DNA of 64,000 nucleotides. It comes from Candidatus Woesearchaeota archaeon (lineage in GTDB: Archaea > Nanobdellota > Nanobdellia > Woesearchaeales > JAZDKJ01). Positions 23,725-38,071 of this stretch are shown here, piece after piece. The notes under the pieces were generated by a model. That model did no database searches and was not told where the DNA came from. It worked only from the letters and a program-made list of their open reading frames with translations. The position numbers and the translations under genes were made by a program. Numbering within the stretch: position 1 is the stretch's first letter; each line of letters opens with the position of its first letter. The stretch lies in contig JAZDKJ010000006.1 in NCBI GenBank assembly GCA_043803105.1, positions 384,001 to 448,000 of the forward strand, in the 5' to 3' direction.

Positions 23725-24252
23725 CTAAGGTATTCTTCTCAATTGCCTGACAAGGTAATTTTGCGAGTCATCAGGCAGCTTATGTCTTGCCTCTTCCTGC
23801 ACAATTGGCTTTGCCTCTTCTTTTTTGGCGAACGGATTCTCTGCCAAGGGCTTGAGGATAAGTTCTACAGTTGACATTTCCTCTTCGCTTAGCTGTTTCG
23901 TCTTCCACTCAAGGTTAAGGCCGTCGTTCTCCATCCTTGGTATTATCTGGATCGTGAAATGTGCGTACATTTGTCCAGCAGCAACTCCATTGTTGACAAG
24001 GATATTTGTGCCGTGCATGCCCAGGCTTTCGAACACTGAGGTTGATATCTTGTTTGCCATAACAAAGAGTTTTTCGAGCTCGTCGTCCGGCACCTGTTCG
24101 AGTATTGTATAATGCTTTTTCGGGAAGAGAAGTACCTGGCCTGGAGTGCTCGGTTTGTCATGGAGCACCGCCTTCATCATGTCATCTTCATAGACAGTGA
24201 ATTCTGCCCTGCCCAAGGCAAGGTTGCATATTGTACAATCTTCTTTGTTCAT
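23725..24252 (-). CDS. HIT family protein (degenerate triad)
   Basis: CTIC...VYEDD...PGQVLLFPKKH...NNGVAAGQ..AHFTIQIIPR. Confidence 0.88.
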   Translation of the reverse strand: MNKEDCTICNLALGRAEFTVYEDDMMKAVLHDKPSTPGQVLLFPKKHYTILEQVPDDELEKLFVMANKISTSVFESLGMHGTNILVNNGVAAGQMYAHFTIQIIPRMENDGLNLEWKTKQLSEEEMSTVELILKPLAENPFAKKEEAKPIVQEEARHKLPDDSQNYLVRQLRRIP

Positions 24253-27771: not shown

Positions 27772-28725
27772 GTGTCTGATAAACTGTTGCTGATTGGTAT
27801 GGGTTCGCCTAGTGATTTGAAGCATTTTGAAAAGCCTTATGCAAGCCTTGACGGCACCATCCCGGAATATCTCTTAAAAAAGGGTGTGAGACTATATTTG
27901 AGCCCTGGCACAGGAAAGCCTCTTGTTACCTCAATACATCGCACCACTGATACAGCAATGAAATTTGCAGATTCTCTTGATAGCTTGGTTGCTATAGAAG
28001 GAAGAAATGACAGGTTTGTTGCCTTATTGTTTGGCGGGCTTGCTTTTCATCTTGGTGGGGCTTTTGCTGGAAAGAATCCTGCAATACCGACGATTGTAGC
28101 TGCGATGGATGAGCATGCCTTCATGAGCGCCTATGCTATGCCTAAAGGAACTCCGGTTGGATTGGTTGGAGTCAACCAGCTTGACAAGGCTGTGATGATG
28201 GCAACTAAGATTCTTGACTATAACGATTCTAACCGAGCATGGATCATACACCATCATTTCACCAATCCTCCATCGACTGATAGGGAGCATCTCGTAAAGT
28301 CTTCATATGATGCTGCCACTCAGCTTCTGCAAAAGTGCAATGTTTTGTCTTGGGCAGTTGAATTTATTTTTGTCGCGCAGAAGAAATATAAAGGTGTTTC
28401 ATTAAGCCTGCCAGCGCTGCCACAAACCGCAATAGAAATGGACAAGAGGTTAATTTTGGGTTCTGTTTCGTTTGTCAATCCTGCTGCGTTAAGTCCTTGC
28501 ACCACAGGTCAGTATCAGACCCTCATGGATGTTGCTGGTCAGCTCAAGAACTCTTTGCTGGTCCATGACCCTTACAACGCAGCCCTTTTTACAATCCAGG
28601 TTATCGCAAACAAGTATCCAGACTTACGTCTTGGGCTTGACAGGATAAAGGAAGAATCGAGGCTGCCGACTGCGAAGGGTGGGTATTCTCAGTTTTTGCC
28701 AATAAAAAAGGATGATTTCAAGTGA
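27772..28725 (+). CDS. purE: double-length PurE-like AIR carboxylase/mutase
   Basis: MGSPSD, SIHRT, GLAFHLGG, MPKGTPVG; second degenerate domain ending NAALFTIQVIA. Confidence 0.8.
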   Translation: MSDKLLLIGMGSPSDLKHFEKPYASLDGTIPEYLLKKGVRLYLSPGTGKPLVTSIHRTTDTAMKFADSLDSLVAIEGRNDRFVALLFGGLAFHLGGAFAGKNPAIPTIVAAMDEHAFMSAYAMPKGTPVGLVGVNQLDKAVMMATKILDYNDSNRAWIIHHHFTNPPSTDREHLVKSSYDAATQLLQKCNVLSWAVEFIFVAQKKYKGVSLSLPALPQTAIEMDKRLILGSVSFVNPAALSPCTTGQYQTLMDVAGQLKNSLLVHDPYNAALFTIQVIANKYPDLRLGLDRIKEESRLPTAKGGYSQFLPIKKDDFK

Positions 28726-28736
28726 GGTGAAATAAC

Positions 28737-30017
28737 GTGGGCAGTACAAAAGATTTGGTTACTACAGGAAAGCTTGGTGAGCAATGGTATGCGCCTCCAA
28801 CCGCTGTCAAGTTTGGTTATGGACCAATGCAGGTAAAAGGAACCTTCTCTGTGGCAGACTTAAAGAAGCTTATTCCTGAGTCTATCATAAAAAACAAGGC
28901 AGAAGCCCTTGCCATGCAGCAGGCAGCATTTGCAGAGTATCTGCAATATAATCACCCTGAGATCCCAAATTCCTATTATGGTATATTGGACAAAGATTTC
29001 AAACGTACTGACGTTCAGCACTTGTTGTCTAAGGGAGAAACATCGAGCATCGTAGTCATGAAGCTTGCCCACACGCCAGATAGCTTTTGCGAAGGTAACC
29101 TTGATAAATATCGGGCTGCCCTGCAATCAGGAGAATTACAGTGCGGCGTTGCAGACGTGGAGTCAATCTTCAGGCTGGGCTTTCCGCTCGGCAGCTCGAC
29201 TTTCGAGGATATTTTCAAGGCTGTCAGGTTAGGAGAAAAGTACGAGCATTTAGCCACTTACAATGAGACTGCGGCCGAACTCGACAAAATCAGGGCTATG
29301 GTTTCCGAGCAAGGTCTTGACATCTTCGAAGGTTTGGAGGAATTGCTTCAAAAAAAAGGCCTGGGCACCACTATTCCGAATCCAGGATTTGTCCTCAAGC
29401 ATTTTGTTTATGATACAACCACAAAATTCGTGAGTTACGGCGACCTTAAGATATCTGAGGAAGATGCTGAGAAACTTAGCGGCCTAAGCCATGAGAGTTA
29501 TCAGCTCTGGAAGAATGACATGTTCCCGAAGATTGCTGCTGCGCAGATAAAATTTTGCATGGAAAGGAACATATTCAATATTGATGGCAAGAGTGAAATC
29601 GTGGCATACCATCGCATGCCAGTTGTTGCCGACTTCCAATGCACTGTTGACGAAAACAGGGAAATGATAGTTGTGGCGGTTGACGGGGTTGAATGGCTGA
29701 TTCCCAGCAATAAGGAAATACAGCGGGCGATTTTCAGAAAAGAGGGAGTTTATGCAGCAAAGGCTGAGGCTTTAAGGCGGTCAGTAAAAGACAAAGGAGT
29801 CTTTGACCATTGGAAGGAGTATTTTCCGGCTGTCATCAAGGAGCGAAAGATTGATTTGGTGGGTGTTACAGAATTCTCGTGTGATTTGATGGCAAATGCA
29901 ATCATGGAAGTTGCCAACCGGACTCTCGGCCATAGGGTGTTTGATGCAAAGCCGCTTGACTCGTGGGTTAGAGACTTTGTTCCTTATGCTAGTAAGTTAC
30001 AAAGGCAAGGTGATTAA
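28737..30017 (+). CDS. purC: SAICAR synthetase, long divergent form
   Basis: MGSTKDL, FSVAD, ESIFR.G.P.GSS, TTKF...D, DGKSE, VAD...TVDENR, NKEIQR. Confidence 0.85.
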   Translation: MGSTKDLVTTGKLGEQWYAPPTAVKFGYGPMQVKGTFSVADLKKLIPESIIKNKAEALAMQQAAFAEYLQYNHPEIPNSYYGILDKDFKRTDVQHLLSKGETSSIVVMKLAHTPDSFCEGNLDKYRAALQSGELQCGVADVESIFRLGFPLGSSTFEDIFKAVRLGEKYEHLATYNETAAELDKIRAMVSEQGLDIFEGLEELLQKKGLGTTIPNPGFVLKHFVYDTTTKFVSYGDLKISEEDAEKLSGLSHESYQLWKNDMFPKIAAAQIKFCMERNIFNIDGKSEIVAYHRMPVVADFQCTVDENREMIVVAVDGVEWLIPSNKEIQRAIFRKEGVYAAKAEALRRSVKDKGVFDHWKEYFPAVIKERKIDLVGVTEFSCDLMANAIMEVANRTLGHRVFDAKPLDSWVRDFVPYASKLQRQGD

Positions 30018-30019
30018 GA

Positions 30020-31972
30020 ATGGGGCATGTTTTGTTCGGTCGTTATCCAAGCAAGGAGATGAAGGAAATCATCGGTCCTCAACCCAAGGATTACAGGACG
30101 CTTTGCTCTCCTGATATGGAAAATATTTTCTCCAAGGAGTCAAAACATAATGGTTGGGATGACGTTTGGTATGCCCATATGAAAGCACAAAAAGAAACAG
30201 GCCTGCCAATACCGCAGGAGCATTTGGATGCCTTCCAAGTTATTCTACACAAGATTAATTATCAACGCATGGATGAGATTGAACGAATCCTGAAGCATGA
30301 TGTTGATTCTGGCAGGAAGCATCGTGCTGAAGAATTGGAGAAGGTGTTGGAAGGCTCTTCCGCATGGCTGCATGCTGGTGCAACTAGCTGCACGGTCACA
30401 GATAATCAGGAGCTTACTGCAATGTATAACGGCTTGCAGCTCTTGGCAGACAAAGGATACAATCTCCTTAACAAGCTTGAGCGTTTTGATTCTGGTCTGA
30501 TTGTTAACCAGCACAAGTCAGATCTAGAATATGCCTTGAATATATTAGACAGCAGGATCAACAACTTCAAGATAAGAGGTGCAAAAGGCACCACAGGCAC
30601 CCAGGCAAGCTATCTCGAGCTGTTTGATGGCAATGCAGAAAAGGTCAGCGCTTTCGAACAAGCCTTCATCCAAAGACTTGGGTTTGGTAGGGCATTCACG
30701 ATAACCGGTCAGACCTATCCACGGATTGCGGATTACCAGCTCGTATCAACCTTGGGCGTGCTTGCGACTGCGCTTTCAAACATTGCAGAGTACTCAGTCA
30801 GCTTTTCCGAAGAATTAGCTCATCCTTTGTCTGATGTGAAGAGCTTTGCAAAAAGCGCTGCGCACATGGCATCCAAGCAGTGGTTGGAGCGAACACTAGA
30901 TGACTCTGCCCAGAGACGGATTATCATCGAAGATTCCTTCAAGGCAGTTGAGTATGTTCTGGATAGGCTGAACTCTGCAGAAATTAACCCGATAGAGATA
31001 AGGGACCCTGACTTTCAGCTAAGCCAGCCATTGTCAGAAACGCTTGAAGGCACTACAGGCAAGGCTCTTGAGCTGTTGCGTGACAAGACTGTGAATACAA
31101 TTTTCAGAATTCACACATTTGCAGAGAAGTTCAAGGACCAGCCTTGCATGGCATACACTCATTATCAGGTTGCCCAGCCTACAACTGTAGGCAAGCGGCT
31201 TGACCTTTGGGCCTATAATTATGTTTTGGCACTTCAGGACATTGAAGACTTTTTGGAGTCTGACAAGAACCTTGAAGTAAGCCAGAATATTGTTGAATAT
31301 CGCATCGCCACACTGTTAACACAGATTGCGGTTGCTGCCCATAAGCAAGCCGCAGATGTCAGGTTGTGCCAGCATGACGGGATAATGACTGAGCCTTTTG
31401 CAATTGGCCAAAAAGGTTCAAGTGCTATGCCTCATAAGCGCAATCCTATGAAGAATGAGCGCATCTGTTCTCTATCTACAGAGTTGATTCAGTATGCTGA
31501 TTCCAATAATGCCAACCCTTATAGCTTTTTGCTAGCTGACTCAGTCTTGAATCTTGCAATGGCTGTTTTTGTTGAGGATACTCCTAAACAAAAGGGCTTT
31601 ACTGTTAACCCAGAGGTTATTGCAAAGAATTTCAGGGAATTTCTGCCATATATCTGCCTAGAGCAACTGGTTAACAAAGTGCTCAAGACAGGAAAATACA
31701 AGCGCGAGGAGCTGTATGACATCGCTTACAATTGCTCAATACAGGCCCGAACCAATGTCGAGGTACACGGCAAGGCAAACAACACGCTTGAATTAGTGTG
31801 CGAATACCCTCAATTTGGGCTCACTCCAGAAATGATTCCTGCGATGCTTGATCCTATGCTCTATATCGGTCTAGCGTCAAAACAGGTAGAATTGTTTGGA
31901 AGGGTGCATGTGGACCCCTTGAAAGAGAAGTACAAATCTGTTCAGGCGTTAGAGTCTGACGTGAAAGTTTAA
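30020..31972 (+). CDS. purB: adenylosuccinate lyase with internally duplicated central domain
   Basis: HDV, HAGATS, KGTTGTQAS, TGQTY, ERTLDDSA, THYQ.AQPTTVGKR, GSSAMPHKRNP all present but in non-canonical order; 650 aa. Confidence 0.92.
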   Translation: MGHVLFGRYPSKEMKEIIGPQPKDYRTLCSPDMENIFSKESKHNGWDDVWYAHMKAQKETGLPIPQEHLDAFQVILHKINYQRMDEIERILKHDVDSGRKHRAEELEKVLEGSSAWLHAGATSCTVTDNQELTAMYNGLQLLADKGYNLLNKLERFDSGLIVNQHKSDLEYALNILDSRINNFKIRGAKGTTGTQASYLELFDGNAEKVSAFEQAFIQRLGFGRAFTITGQTYPRIADYQLVSTLGVLATALSNIAEYSVSFSEELAHPLSDVKSFAKSAAHMASKQWLERTLDDSAQRRIIIEDSFKAVEYVLDRLNSAEINPIEIRDPDFQLSQPLSETLEGTTGKALELLRDKTVNTIFRIHTFAEKFKDQPCMAYTHYQVAQPTTVGKRLDLWAYNYVLALQDIEDFLESDKNLEVSQNIVEYRIATLLTQIAVAAHKQAADVRLCQHDGIMTEPFAIGQKGSSAMPHKRNPMKNERICSLSTELIQYADSNNANPYSFLLADSVLNLAMAVFVEDTPKQKGFTVNPEVIAKNFREFLPYICLEQLVNKVLKTGKYKREELYDIAYNCSIQARTNVEVHGKANNTLELVCEYPQFGLTPEMIPAMLDPMLYIGLASKQVELFGRVHVDPLKEKYKSVQALESDVKV

Positions 31973-35648: not shown

Positions 35649-37112
35649 ATGGCAGCAATGCGAGAAGAGAAGCAGAAGTATTTCAACAGGATGCAGGATA
35701 ATTTCCCGCAAGCACTCCTGGTTGGCTTCGCTGATTTGGATGCATCCAAAATACTGGCTGTCAACGTCTCACACCTCAACCAACATGGAGAAACCATAGA
35801 GACGACTCTCCAGCCATTAGCCTACCGCAAAGTGACTTGGACTCTTCCTAATGCAAAAGGTGAGTTGGAAGAGATGGGTTTGCGTTACGGAGACAATCCT
35901 GACCAAAAATCTGCTATGTTCAAATTAGTGGGAGGAAATCTTGCTCTTGCAGCCTGTAAGTTTGTTGGAGCAAATAACGGGCTTGTAAGTGCAATAACTG
36001 AGGCTGACATGATCCAAGCAGGTAAGCATCCAGGTAAAACAAACCTTACTGATGTGGATTCCGCGCTGAATATACTTAGGTATTTGGGTGAAAAACCGGC
36101 ATGCGCTATAATGAAGCACAACAATCCCTCCGGCTTAGCCTATGGAGGTTCTTCTGAAGTGACAGGTGCTGCCTTCGGGTCTGACGTCTCCGAAGCATAC
36201 AGGAAGGCAAATGATGCTGACAGGATAGCTGCTTTTGGTGGGGCTGCTGTTTTCAATAAGCCCATAGATACAGTCACAGCAGAAATGATTAATCGCAATT
36301 ACCTGGAGGTGGTCTGTGCCCCGGACTTTGAAAGAGGTGCTGTTGAAATCCTTAAGGGTAGGAAGAACTTGAGAATAATTCGCTTGGACAATATCAATCG
36401 CCTAGAGAATTATTCAACCACCCAGATTATTGATTTTAAGGCATTGATGGATGGTGGGTTCATAGTCCAGGAGTCCCAGGTGAATAAGGTTCGTTCATTG
36501 GCAGACCTGAAAAGAGCCAGTCACAAAGGTTATCAGACAGAACGGTGGCCCCCAGACCCCAACGAAGTTAGGGACATGATTTTTGGTGTGGCAGTAGAGT
36601 GTGGGGTTACATCAAACTCTGTCCTTTACGTTAAGGACGAAACAACAGTATCTGTTGGGACAGGTCAGCAGGACAGGCTTGATGTTACAGTCTATGCCAT
36701 AGCTAAAGCGTATAGAAAGCGCCGTGACAGGGAATGTTTCAAAGAGTTTGGTATTCCCTATCCAGCGCTTGAAACAATGATATTTCACAAAGAGCAAGGC
36801 ATAGACAGGGATTATGGAAGCACTGCGGTCAATAACGCTAACCTGAACGGAGTTGGTATGCTAAGAGAGTGGAAAAAAGAGATAGATGCAAGAGTCAACA
36901 GTATACATGGTGGATTGATTGGCGCGACAAAGGTTTCAGACGCTTTCTTCCCTGAGCCTGACGCCATCGATTACTCGCTTATGGAATTCATTTCCGCAGT
37001 TGTGCATCCCGAAGGTTCGGATAAGGATTGGGCTACCATTGATGCCTGCAATAAGGCTAAGCCGAGGCCAGTTATTGTGGCGCATACAACTCAGAGATTG
37101 TTCAAGCACTGA
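35649..37112 (+). CDS. purH: AICAR transformylase (PurH C-terminal domain only)
   Basis: LRYGDNPDQ, KHNNP, AAFGG, LEVVCAP, SNS, SDAFFP, RLFKH; no MGS-like cyclohydrolase domain recognised. Confidence 0.9.
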   Translation: MAAMREEKQKYFNRMQDNFPQALLVGFADLDASKILAVNVSHLNQHGETIETTLQPLAYRKVTWTLPNAKGELEEMGLRYGDNPDQKSAMFKLVGGNLALAACKFVGANNGLVSAITEADMIQAGKHPGKTNLTDVDSALNILRYLGEKPACAIMKHNNPSGLAYGGSSEVTGAAFGSDVSEAYRKANDADRIAAFGGAAVFNKPIDTVTAEMINRNYLEVVCAPDFERGAVEILKGRKNLRIIRLDNINRLENYSTTQIIDFKALMDGGFIVQESQVNKVRSLADLKRASHKGYQTERWPPDPNEVRDMIFGVAVECGVTSNSVLYVKDETTVSVGTGQQDRLDVTVYAIAKAYRKRRDRECFKEFGIPYPALETMIFHKEQGIDRDYGSTAVNNANLNGVGMLREWKKEIDARVNSIHGGLIGATKVSDAFFPEPDAIDYSLMEFISAVVHPEGSDKDWATIDACNKAKPRPVIVAHTTQRLFKH

Positions 37113-37114
37113 GA

Positions 37115-38071
37115 ATGTTAAACAACAAAACCCTCGAGTCAGCCCTGTCAATACTTGGCTCTCTTGGTCCAGGACCTGCCTGCCTTATCTATAATGATGG
37201 CATGCTCTCGAGTGCTGCATGCAGCATTTCTGCTGCTGACGCTTTCGAGAAGGCTCGTGATAGTTGCTGGACAGGAACCATTGCAGGCTCTGCATTCTTC
37301 AACAGGCCTCTGTGCTTGGACACAGCTAAAATGATTGAAGAGACTGATCTTCTTCAGGTGTACGCTCCTTCATTTGATGATAAGGCAGTGAAGGTTTTAG
37401 AGAAGAAGACGATGGTTCCAATAAACCTCAATAAAGCGCCAAACACAATTCAACTAATTTGCTTGAATAAGCGGAATAGTCAGTTGCGCACTTCTTTTTC
37501 TGCTCAGCAAAATGATTTGTACTTGGCCATTGCGTGCATGCAAGATACGCCATCCCGTGCCCTGGTATTAGCCAAGGAAAGCAAGACTGCCGCGATTGTT
37601 GCGTCTGAAACACTGGAGGATTGTGCTTTGCTTGCGTTGAGGGACGCAGGGAGAAACTATAAGAACATGATTTGTTACAATGATTACCATCTCTCCTATG
37701 ACTTTCTTGAAAGCAGCATCTCCTGCGTCGCCCTCAGAGTGATTACAGAGCCAGAGGCAATTGCCAAAATTGAGGATATACAAGCAAGGAGTAAGATCAT
37801 TGGTGGTGCTGTTAAGGTAGAAAAGCTTAGTGTAATGGACACCATAAACAAGCTTGCCAATCAAGACAGGTCGGGTCTTAATTACGCTGTTGCAGTCACC
37901 AAATGCGAATTTGACATGGCCACCCTTAGCTTTCTTGCTGACAAAGGCATAATTGCTGTGGCACAGCCAAGCCATAATCCTGAGATTGAAAAAGGATGCC
38001 GTAAATTAGACCTTACTTTGTTGCTCTATCACATTAATGAAAAGCCAAAATGCTGCGAGGTGCGAATATGA
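37115..38071 (+). CDS. degenerate paralog of the upstream AICAR transformylase
   Basis: Colinear similarity to 35649-37112 (ESALSIL..L...PACLI vs DSALNIL..L...PACAI; FNRPL vs FNKPI; APSFD vs APDFE) without KHNNP or SDAFFP. Confidence 0.75.
   Translation: MLNNKTLESALSILGSLGPGPACLIYNDGMLSSAACSISAADAFEKARDSCWTGTIAGSAFFNRPLCLDTAKMIEETDLLQVYAPSFDDKAVKVLEKKTMVPINLNKAPNTIQLICLNKRNSQLRTSFSAQQNDLYLAIACMQDTPSRALVLAKESKTAAIVASETLEDCALLALRDAGRNYKNMICYNDYHLSYDFLESSISCVALRVITEPEAIAKIEDIQARSKIIGGAVKVEKLSVMDTINKLANQDRSGLNYAVAVTKCEFDMATLSFLADKGIIAVAQPSHNPEIEKGCRKLDLTLLLYHINEKPKCCEVRI

Follow-up and report, generated by a model that had tools for sequence, protein, structure and literature searches.

Can an enzyme whose active sites are each assembled from three subunits carry its central helical domain twice in one chain, with the catalytic loops divided between the two copies, and still work? 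This question is raised by a gene in the purine operon of a Candidatus Woesearchaeota archaeon, located within a stretch of 64,000 nucleotides (nt) that we refer to as the window (assembly GCA_043803105.1, contig JAZDKJ010000006.1, positions 384,001 to 448,000 of the forward strand). The gene, which we call purB-long, encodes a homologue of adenylosuccinate lyase (PurB/ADSL) of 650 amino acids (aa) in which the central domain (D2), placed between domain 1 (D1) and domain 3 (D3), is present as two copies, D2a and D2b. The tandem architecture, the reciprocal deletions in the two copies, the conserved catalytic residues, the single origin and the purine-operon context are what the data establish. 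Taken as a whole, the protein is probably a working adenylosuccinate lyase, predicted to act as a homodimer with two sites per dimer and to cleave both succinylaminoimidazole carboxamide ribotide (SAICAR) and adenylosuccinate. What is new is the tandem-D2 architecture; the family (ADSL), the motifs and the domain types are known ones, recognised by motifs, fold and context. The features of the gene are as follows.

30020..31972, + strand: purB-long, predicted tandem-D2 adenylosuccinate lyase (PurB/ADSL homologue), 650 aa, uninterrupted open reading frame
30020..30376, + strand: domain 1, residues 1-119
30041..30133, + strand: N-terminal arm with a 19-residue insertion, RYPSKEM (residues 8-14) and then CSPDMENIFS (residues 29-38)
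30293-30304, + strand: KHDV motif, residues 92-95, domain 1
30377..30976, + strand: D2a, five-helix bundle no. 1, residues 120-319, without the THxQ loop and the SS loop
Residues 120-123, + strand: GATS motif, D2a
Residues 189-194, + strand: KGTTGT motif, D2a
Residues 229-233, + strand: TGQTY motif, D2a
Residues 290-297, + strand: ERTLDDSA motif, D2a
30977..31051, + strand: linker between the copies, residues 320-344, poorly conserved, 11-32 residues across the long family
31052..31591, + strand: D2b, five-helix bundle no. 2, residues 345-524, without the KGTTGT..TGQTY sub-domain and the ERTLDDSA loop
Residues 348-356, + strand: KALELLRDK, D2b
Residues 380-383, + strand: THYQ motif with catalytic His381, D2b
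Residues 466-476, + strand: GSSAMPHKRNP, the catalytic serine loop including Ser467, D2b
31592..31969, + strand: domain 3 (lid), residues 525-650, with a below-cut-off match to Pfam ADSL_C and a match to human ADSL 363-483

An earlier note on this DNA, made from the letters alone, had listed the PurB motifs of this reading frame and proposed that they were shared out between two copies of one domain. Every motif it quoted was found, and each of those searched by regular expression occurs exactly once in the 650-aa protein, including the ADSL-type motifs THxQ, HDV, GATS, KGTTGT, TGQTY and ERTLDDSA. The signature loop of the superfamily, SSxMPxKxN, is present as GSSAMPHKRNP at 466-476, and the Pfam model Lyase_1 (PF00206) matches in two stretches with 57.3 bits against a cut-off of 27. 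In domain 3, the residue aligned with the lid arginine of the human enzyme is Arg562.

Do the two halves correspond to the same domain? When all solved structures were searched with phmmer, the best matches were adenylosuccinate lyases, among them human ADSL (5nx8, 487 aa) with a whole-protein E-value of 7.7e-61. The alignment to 5nx8 consists of six pieces, which follow one another in purB-long in the non-canonical order A-C-E and then B-D-F:

Piece A: purB-long residues 28-154, ADSL 24-146
Piece C: purB-long residues 182-249, ADSL 195-262
Piece E: purB-long residues 282-318, ADSL 323-359
Piece B: purB-long residues 349-409, ADSL 130-190
Piece D: purB-long residues 427-490, ADSL 252-315
Piece F: purB-long residues 525-646, ADSL 363-483

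The ADSL segments 130-146 and 252-262 are each matched twice. The alignment of the long family (see below) was split into two halves, and each was compared by hhalign with 100 canonical-length PurB sequences (P0021-P0120). In these profile-profile comparisons, residues 124-325 are colinear with canonical positions 102-350 (E-value 4.7e-59), and residues 340-525 with canonical positions 110-356 (E-value 1.2e-65). The deletions are reciprocal: D2a has lost canonical positions ~137-157 (the THxQ loop) and ~262-290 (the SSxMPxKxNP loop), while D2b has lost ~185-228 (KGTTGT through TGQTY) and ~308-327 (the ERTLDDSA loop). Canonical helices h1 and h3 and the end of h5 are recognisable in both copies. 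Each half spans the whole of D2 with reciprocal deletions, and the six-piece match is far beyond chance. The complementary losses that had been read from the motifs are therefore seen again as loop deletions in the profile alignments, and the alignment of both copies to domain 2 holds by sequence profile as well as by fold.

The deletions follow the geometry of the bundle. In the up-down-up-down-up arrangement of D2, GATS (before h1), KGTTGT..TGQTY (h2-h3) and ERTLDDSA (h4-h5) lie at the pole that adjoins domain 1, and THxQ (h1-h2) and the SS loop (h3-h4) at the pole that adjoins domain 3. D2a retains domain 1 together with all domain-1-pole loops, and D2b retains domain 3 together with all domain-3-pole loops. 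We refer below to the pole carrying these retained loops as the live pole and to the opposite one as the dead or bare pole.

The same architecture appears in the predicted fold. The AlphaFold2 model of the monomer, built from the 20-sequence family alignment, has a mean predicted local distance difference test score (pLDDT) of 89.4 and a predicted template modelling score (pTM) of 0.92; a separate ESM Atlas model reaches a pTM of 0.90. Where the hallmark ADSL fold (D1-D2-D3) has a single five-helix D2, the model has ten long helices, five in each of two up-down bundles (D2a: 123-154, 160-181, 236-256, 264-285 and 295-319; D2b: 345-370, 390-412, 422-452, 477-494 and 500-516) that are joined by a 25-residue linker. 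With VIA-align, residues 16-331 superpose on D1+D2 of ADSL (1yis 2-365: Z 26.7, root-mean-square deviation (rmsd) 2.9 A, 312 aligned residues; 4ffx_C 8-369: Z 25.3), and residues 332-639 superpose on D2+D3 of delta-crystallin (1xwo_C 112-464: Z 17.6, rmsd 3.2 A, 287 aligned residues), with further matches to D2+D3 of delta-crystallin/argininosuccinate lyase in 1u16 and 6ien_D. End-to-end structural alignments of the model give an rmsd of ~32 A, and Foldseek comparison of the whole model with ADSL gives a template modelling (TM) score of only 0.31/0.42 with an rmsd of ~30 A. D1+D2a fits solved lyases, and so does D2b+D3, but no single lyase chain accommodates the two together. These two separate rigid-body matches indicate that the first bundle bears domain 1 and the second bears domain 3.

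Another question is whether this architecture is confined to a single gene. A search of 5.8 billion protein clusters returned 19 others, 603-698 aa long and 33-48% identical to the query over 96-100% of its length, which answers the call for other PurB proteins of ~650 aa with the same motif order; the next-ranked proteins were ordinary PurB of 463-511 aa, with only 39-53% of the query covered. Seven of the 19 are named by their source, five of them by organism, all DPANN: Aenigmatarchaeota (one), Nanoarchaeota (two) and Woesearchaeota (two). The product name is 'lyase family protein' or 'hypothetical protein' in five of the seven and adenylosuccinate lyase in two JGI entries. A profile search of 1.84 billion representatives revealed 12 full-length clusters matched in one colinear stretch, whereas canonical PurB was matched in six stretches. 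Four shorter single-stretch matches in this search (P0125, P0232, P0235 and P0242) may be contig-end fragments or stand-alone halves.

Conservation within the family is distributed by pole. All catalytic motifs are invariant or nearly so in the alignment of 20 long sequences, and every one of the 20 has G466, S467, M470, K473, N475 and P476. In the live-pole segments the top residue reaches a mean frequency of 0.72-0.90, and there are neither gaps nor differences in length. For the four dead-pole loops and the linker, the top-residue frequency is 0.14-0.26, gaps amount to 19-57% and length is variable. Two members, P0009 and P0014, carry large extra insertions (to ~35 residues) in the D2a loop that replaces the SS loop, and P0014 has a further insertion in domain 3; the insertions agree with a dead pole that is free to vary.

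To place the long proteins among PurB sequences, a maximum-likelihood tree of 98 rows was computed by a quick method, with the long proteins entered as six conserved blocks in canonical order. The 23 long proteins all fall into a single clade (Shimodaira-Hasegawa-like approximate likelihood ratio test, SH-aLRT, 95), whose sister group consists of seven proteins of canonical length, P0021-P0026 and P0124 (support 100), while 10 of the 14 canonical PurB of the same phylum cluster elsewhere in the tree (support 99). This topology is consistent with a single origin of the duplication, with the proviso that block reordering could itself favour the grouping of long rows. The sister proteins (463-511 aa, metagenomic) share the N-terminal wording GRYPSKEMK with purB-long; they have a single D2 and the canonical motif order (six stretches against the long-family profile), and they are without the 19-residue insertion.

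This insertion bears on the suggestion that the N-terminal helix is doubled as well. In the hhalign comparison it lies between RY (residues 8-9) and S30, and it starts with PSKEMKEII, which resembles the canonical ASxEMxxIFS that follows RY; the latter recurs here as CSPDMENIFS. The N-terminus of the canonical-length sister clade reads GRYPSKEMKAIFG, with the insertion absent. Thus, an insertion resembling the canonical segment is present, and a short tandem doubling of the RY-ASxEMxxIFS segment is a plausible reading of it, the segment being too short for statistics.

Within the phylum of the window's genome, the distribution of matches is sparse. Matches at E <= 1e-10 were found in 16 of 401 sampled genomes (one of the 16, G396, is unpublished), and the long form was present only in the genome of the window. 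Among its 41 nearest relatives, four had matches; the only genome of the same genus (84% complete) had none, and no long form was found in the relatives searched besides the window's own genome. A profile search of genome contigs with the family alignment gave at least 80 loci, all of canonical gene length, with no long form among the matches listed.

How could such a protein form an active site? The canonical enzyme has four D2 bundles that make up a 20-helix core. From its 222 symmetry we infer that three subunits meet at each canonical site: A contributes its domain-1 pole, with HDV, GATS, KGTTGT, TGQTY and ERTLDDSA, while B and C, two antiparallel subunits, contribute their domain-3 poles. 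Of the latter, one would give the THxQ histidine and the other the serine loop SSxMPxKxNP. ASL is described as having four sites, each made up of three conserved D2 regions that belong to three monomers (PMC13539675). Domain 3 is described as a lid whose Arg396 enters the active site and reaches the serine loop (PMC6301967).

In the mechanism that we propose, an in-frame duplication of D2 would have produced the arrangement D1-D2a-D2b-D3. Two such chains would pair about a two-fold axis along the bundle to give a pseudo-tetramer in which D2a and D2a' stand in for canonical subunits A and D, and D2b and D2b' for B and C. One pole would carry two complete composite sites, each drawing on both chains, and the other pole only short variable loops and linkers. 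Since no site can draw its histidine loop and its serine loop from the same D2b copy, a monomer could not be active. The duplication would also have left the domain-3-facing pole of D2a without domain 3 and the domain-1-facing pole of D2b without domain 1. These two half-sites would have been incomplete from the outset and could therefore have decayed without any need of selection, so that the losses would be exactly complementary. The earlier note had proposed subfunctionalisation after internal duplication. The duplication with complementary losses stands, but not the initial equivalence of the copies: we think that the decay of stranded half-sites describes the losses better than subfunctionalisation of two equivalent copies. 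With somewhat less assurance than for the working enzyme, we favour the view that purB-long represents a natural single-chain conversion of a 222 homotetramer into a C2 homodimer in the aspartase/fumarase superfamily, in other words a polar enzyme in which intragenic complementation has been fixed by evolution.

Complex prediction for the D2a-D2b core is consistent with the pairing of two chains. The core homodimer received an interaction prediction score from aligned errors (ipSAE) of 0.48 (0.48, 0.45 and 0.50 in the individual runs), compared with 0.02 for the best of three controls; in the calibration of this score, the mark was reached by 20 of 30 proteins solved as same-chain pairs and by 1 of 23 solved as single chains. 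The runs share at least 61% of their contacts, and the pLDDT of the partner is at least 74. The predicted cross-chain contacts join N475/P476/M477 with H381, residues 448-452 with 379-385, and W288 with R448, and D2a 275-299 runs antiparallel to D2b' 483-491 (helix 275-286 against helix 483-491). These contacts would bring the domain-3 poles of both D2b copies together, beside the domain-1 pole of D2a. The idea that a dimer could rebuild the four-bundle core is thus borne out at the level of a controlled prediction.

How far can the reading of purB-long as a working two-site dimer be trusted? Several points weigh against it, and we take them together with the alternative explanations to which they belong. 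The alternative that survives best, although it is unlikely, is that the architecture is real and the assembly is a different one: stacked pairs of dimers, a partner protein on the bare pole, or some other way of forming the site. The oligomeric state is a prediction made for a truncated core, in which each chain was represented by residues 112-528 (417 of its 650 residues, D2a-D2b only), and, as the calibration indicates, a single-chain protein can also reach the mark. Moreover, the pass may reflect the predictor's memory of solved ADSL tetramers; it expresses likeness to them and is no independent proof of binding. The pole geometry is based on helix topology, rigid-body matches and cross-chain contacts, not on superposition on a solved tetramer, and the motifs of the canonical site are assigned to subunits in part from published work on ADSL of E. 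coli, B. subtilis and human. Both the bare pole and the linker are variable and exposed at the surface. However, the dead-pole loops are unconserved, which argues against a conserved docking surface there, and the predicted cross-chain contacts reproduce the juxtaposition of histidine and serine loops expected of the canonical site.

A slightly less probable alternative is that activity has been lost or changed, so that purB-long would be a regulator or pseudoenzyme, or else a lyase that acts on a different succinyl- or fumarate-forming substrate. The superfamily does include enzymes for other substrates, and purB-long has weak matches to pcaB and XcbD. The protein also falls below the curated NCBIfam equivalog model for purB, TIGR00928, with 217 bits in five stretches against a cut-off of 326.2, and below that of ADSL_C (PF10397), with 29.4 bits against 32.7, though residues 525-646 align to human ADSL 363-483. 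The low TIGR00928 score is explained by the non-colinear order of the motifs, which breaks the match into five stretches. Four other members of the long family score 213.8-275.4 bits, so that all five long forms tested lie below the cut-off, whereas two canonical proteins of the sister clade pass it with 347.5 and 353.1 bits.

The pathway gives a second argument for changed activity. In the genome (1.56 Mb, 13 contigs, 96.5% complete), searches with the family models used found neither purL (the only AIRS_C match is purM) nor purQ (no GATase_5 match), and for purF the highest score, from a frame of 613 aa, was 109 bits, below the cut-off of 350. Despite the large purine operon, de novo synthesis of purines may thus be incomplete, or purF, purL and purQ may be replaced by unrecognised analogues. 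A role as SAICAR lyase may accordingly be unneeded, and the adenylosuccinate role, beside purA, would remain. On the other side, none of the ADSL motifs for catalysis and substrate binding varies among the 20 members, which share only 33-48% identity, and canonical ADSL is the best match of purB-long in both sequence and fold. The only other Lyase_1 gene in the genome is argH, located beside argG, which leaves purB-long as the sole PurB candidate of the organism, and purA, whose product it would have to cleave, lies two genes downstream of it. We therefore continue to favour an active adenylosuccinate lyase.

It is very unlikely that purB-long contains a single D2 whose segments were rearranged and padded with unrelated linkers, with no true duplication. 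The order A-C-E-B-D-F alone can be read as such a rearrangement, and the two copies show no significant direct similarity: hhalign of D2a against D2b gave an E-value of 0.06 and a probability of 0.9%, and the Smith-Waterman score had a z of 0.65, with 65 of 300 shuffles as high. For this reason, the self dot-plot once proposed as a check would show nothing, and the common origin of the halves has to be argued transitively, through canonical PurB. But either half runs colinearly along canonical D2 in its entirety, both halves match three of its helices, and the models already show ten D2 helices in two separate five-helix bundles, each superposing on a solved D2. Least probable is an artefact of assembly or gene calling (a chimeric contig or a fusion of two genes): the one public sequencing run (7% of sampled words) yielded a single 256-nt contig at 30290-30545, short of the D2a/D2b junction, but the same architecture recurs in the 19 other proteins, from other contigs, and in the 12 full-length clusters of an independent library, and the uninterrupted reading frame is tightly packed in its operon, with an ATG 2 nt past the stop of the upstream purC-like gene and a stop that overlaps the guaB ATG (TAATG).

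How does the tandem-D2 protein compare with known systems? Canonical PurB/ADSL (TIGR00928; human 2J91/5NX8, C. elegans 1YIS) shares its three domain types and its catalytic motifs with purB-long. It differs in having one D2 and not two, a length of about 430-490 aa against 650, and colinear motifs; in purB-long the motifs are non-colinear, each in one copy. The canonical enzyme is a homotetramer with four sites, whereas purB-long is predicted to be a homodimer with two.

Closer in principle is intragenic complementation. In hybrid tetramers of B. subtilis ADSL and in delta-crystallin, differently defective subunits reportedly complement each other. For argininosuccinate lyase, too, intragenic complementation is reported (PMC12818424). 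Since sites are shared, subunits that are defective in different site regions can together rebuild intact sites. Such complementation has been studied, in patients or in the laboratory, between chains of one tetramer that carry point mutations; in purB-long, the copies are fused in one chain, the defects are deletions of whole loops, and they are fixed in a natural lineage.

A second parallel is large PurL (formylglycinamidine ribonucleotide (FGAM) synthetase), whose internally duplicated PurM-like domain forms a pseudo-dimer with one catalytic and one non-catalytic site. There, too, a purine enzyme has a duplicated oligomerising domain that turned a homo-oligomer interface into an intrachain one, and of its symmetric sites one became non-catalytic. 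Large PurL differs in its unrelated fold, in sites that are not built from three subunits, and in the absence of a reciprocal partition of motifs between the copies.

No tandem-D2 member of the aspartase/fumarase superfamily is described in the literature searched, which left most subscription journals and supplementary files outside its scope. In the part of a survey considered here (its figures and Additional File 1 lie outside that part), each purine-synthesising archaeon has one purB, and a duplicated PurB is not mentioned (PMC3261824). Another source, in the passages considered, mentions purB solely as one of the genes of the DPANN ancestor (PMC12892359).

The purine operon lies on the + strand in the order purD, purE-like, purC-like, purB-long, guaB, purA, purO, two purH-like genes and purM. 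It is followed by a gene for a NOG1-type GTPase (archaeal/eukaryal), and genes for aIF5B, a class I Trp/Tyr-type transfer RNA (tRNA) synthetase and a DUF655 protein are nearby; aIF5B, the NOG1-type GTPase and the other genes around the operon agree with an archaeal host. Several neighbouring genes were noted as well:

23725-24252, - strand: HIT-domain gene just upstream of the operon, 175 aa
24249-25247, - strand: HIT-domain gene just upstream of the operon, 332 aa, HIT domain in the C-terminal half
27772-28725, + strand: purE-like gene, 317 aa, about twice the usual length of PurE, AIRC domain only at residues 8-154
28737-30017, + strand: purC-like gene, 426 aa, no Pfam match and no solved-structure match
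35649-37112, + strand: first purH-like gene, 487 aa, AICARFT_IMPCHas E-value 1e-53
37115-38071, + strand: second purH-like gene, 318 aa, weak AICARFT_IMPCHas match, E-value 2.6e-07 (residues 10-161 against profile positions 123-294)

The C-terminal half of the purE-like protein has a weak match to the last helix of PurE (6o55_A; E-value 3e-5 for the full-length query, 0.02 for this half as query). The self-alignment of the protein, examined for internal duplication, gave a z of 0.84, which is not significant, and only two homologues were found; the operon may conceivably hold another internal duplication here. The protein in the purC position has weak NCBIfam SAICAR-synthase matches in two separated parts (residues 20-155 and 214-345) and, judged by its sequence, looks like a very divergent and unusually long PurC. 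The two purH-like genes adjoin the archaeal purO, and the 318-aa protein may be a diverged paralogous partner or a remnant. The two HIT-domain proteins may be nucleotide hydrolases or transferases.

What does the architecture mean for the family? If our model is right, purB-long would be a natural example of an enzyme with sites shared among three subunits that changed its oligomeric state by domain duplication. It shows which parts become free to decay after such an event, the pattern of loss being set by geometry and not by chance. Mutations of human ADSL cause disease, and a two-site, one-pole lyase would, if it exists as predicted, offer a simpler scaffold for the study of cooperativity, lid closure and site sharing in ADSL. 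The opposite pole would then be an unconstrained, evolvable surface. Finally, the non-colinear motif order causes curated models to miss the long PurB, and in metabolic reconstructions these small archaeal genomes may therefore be scored as lacking PurB.

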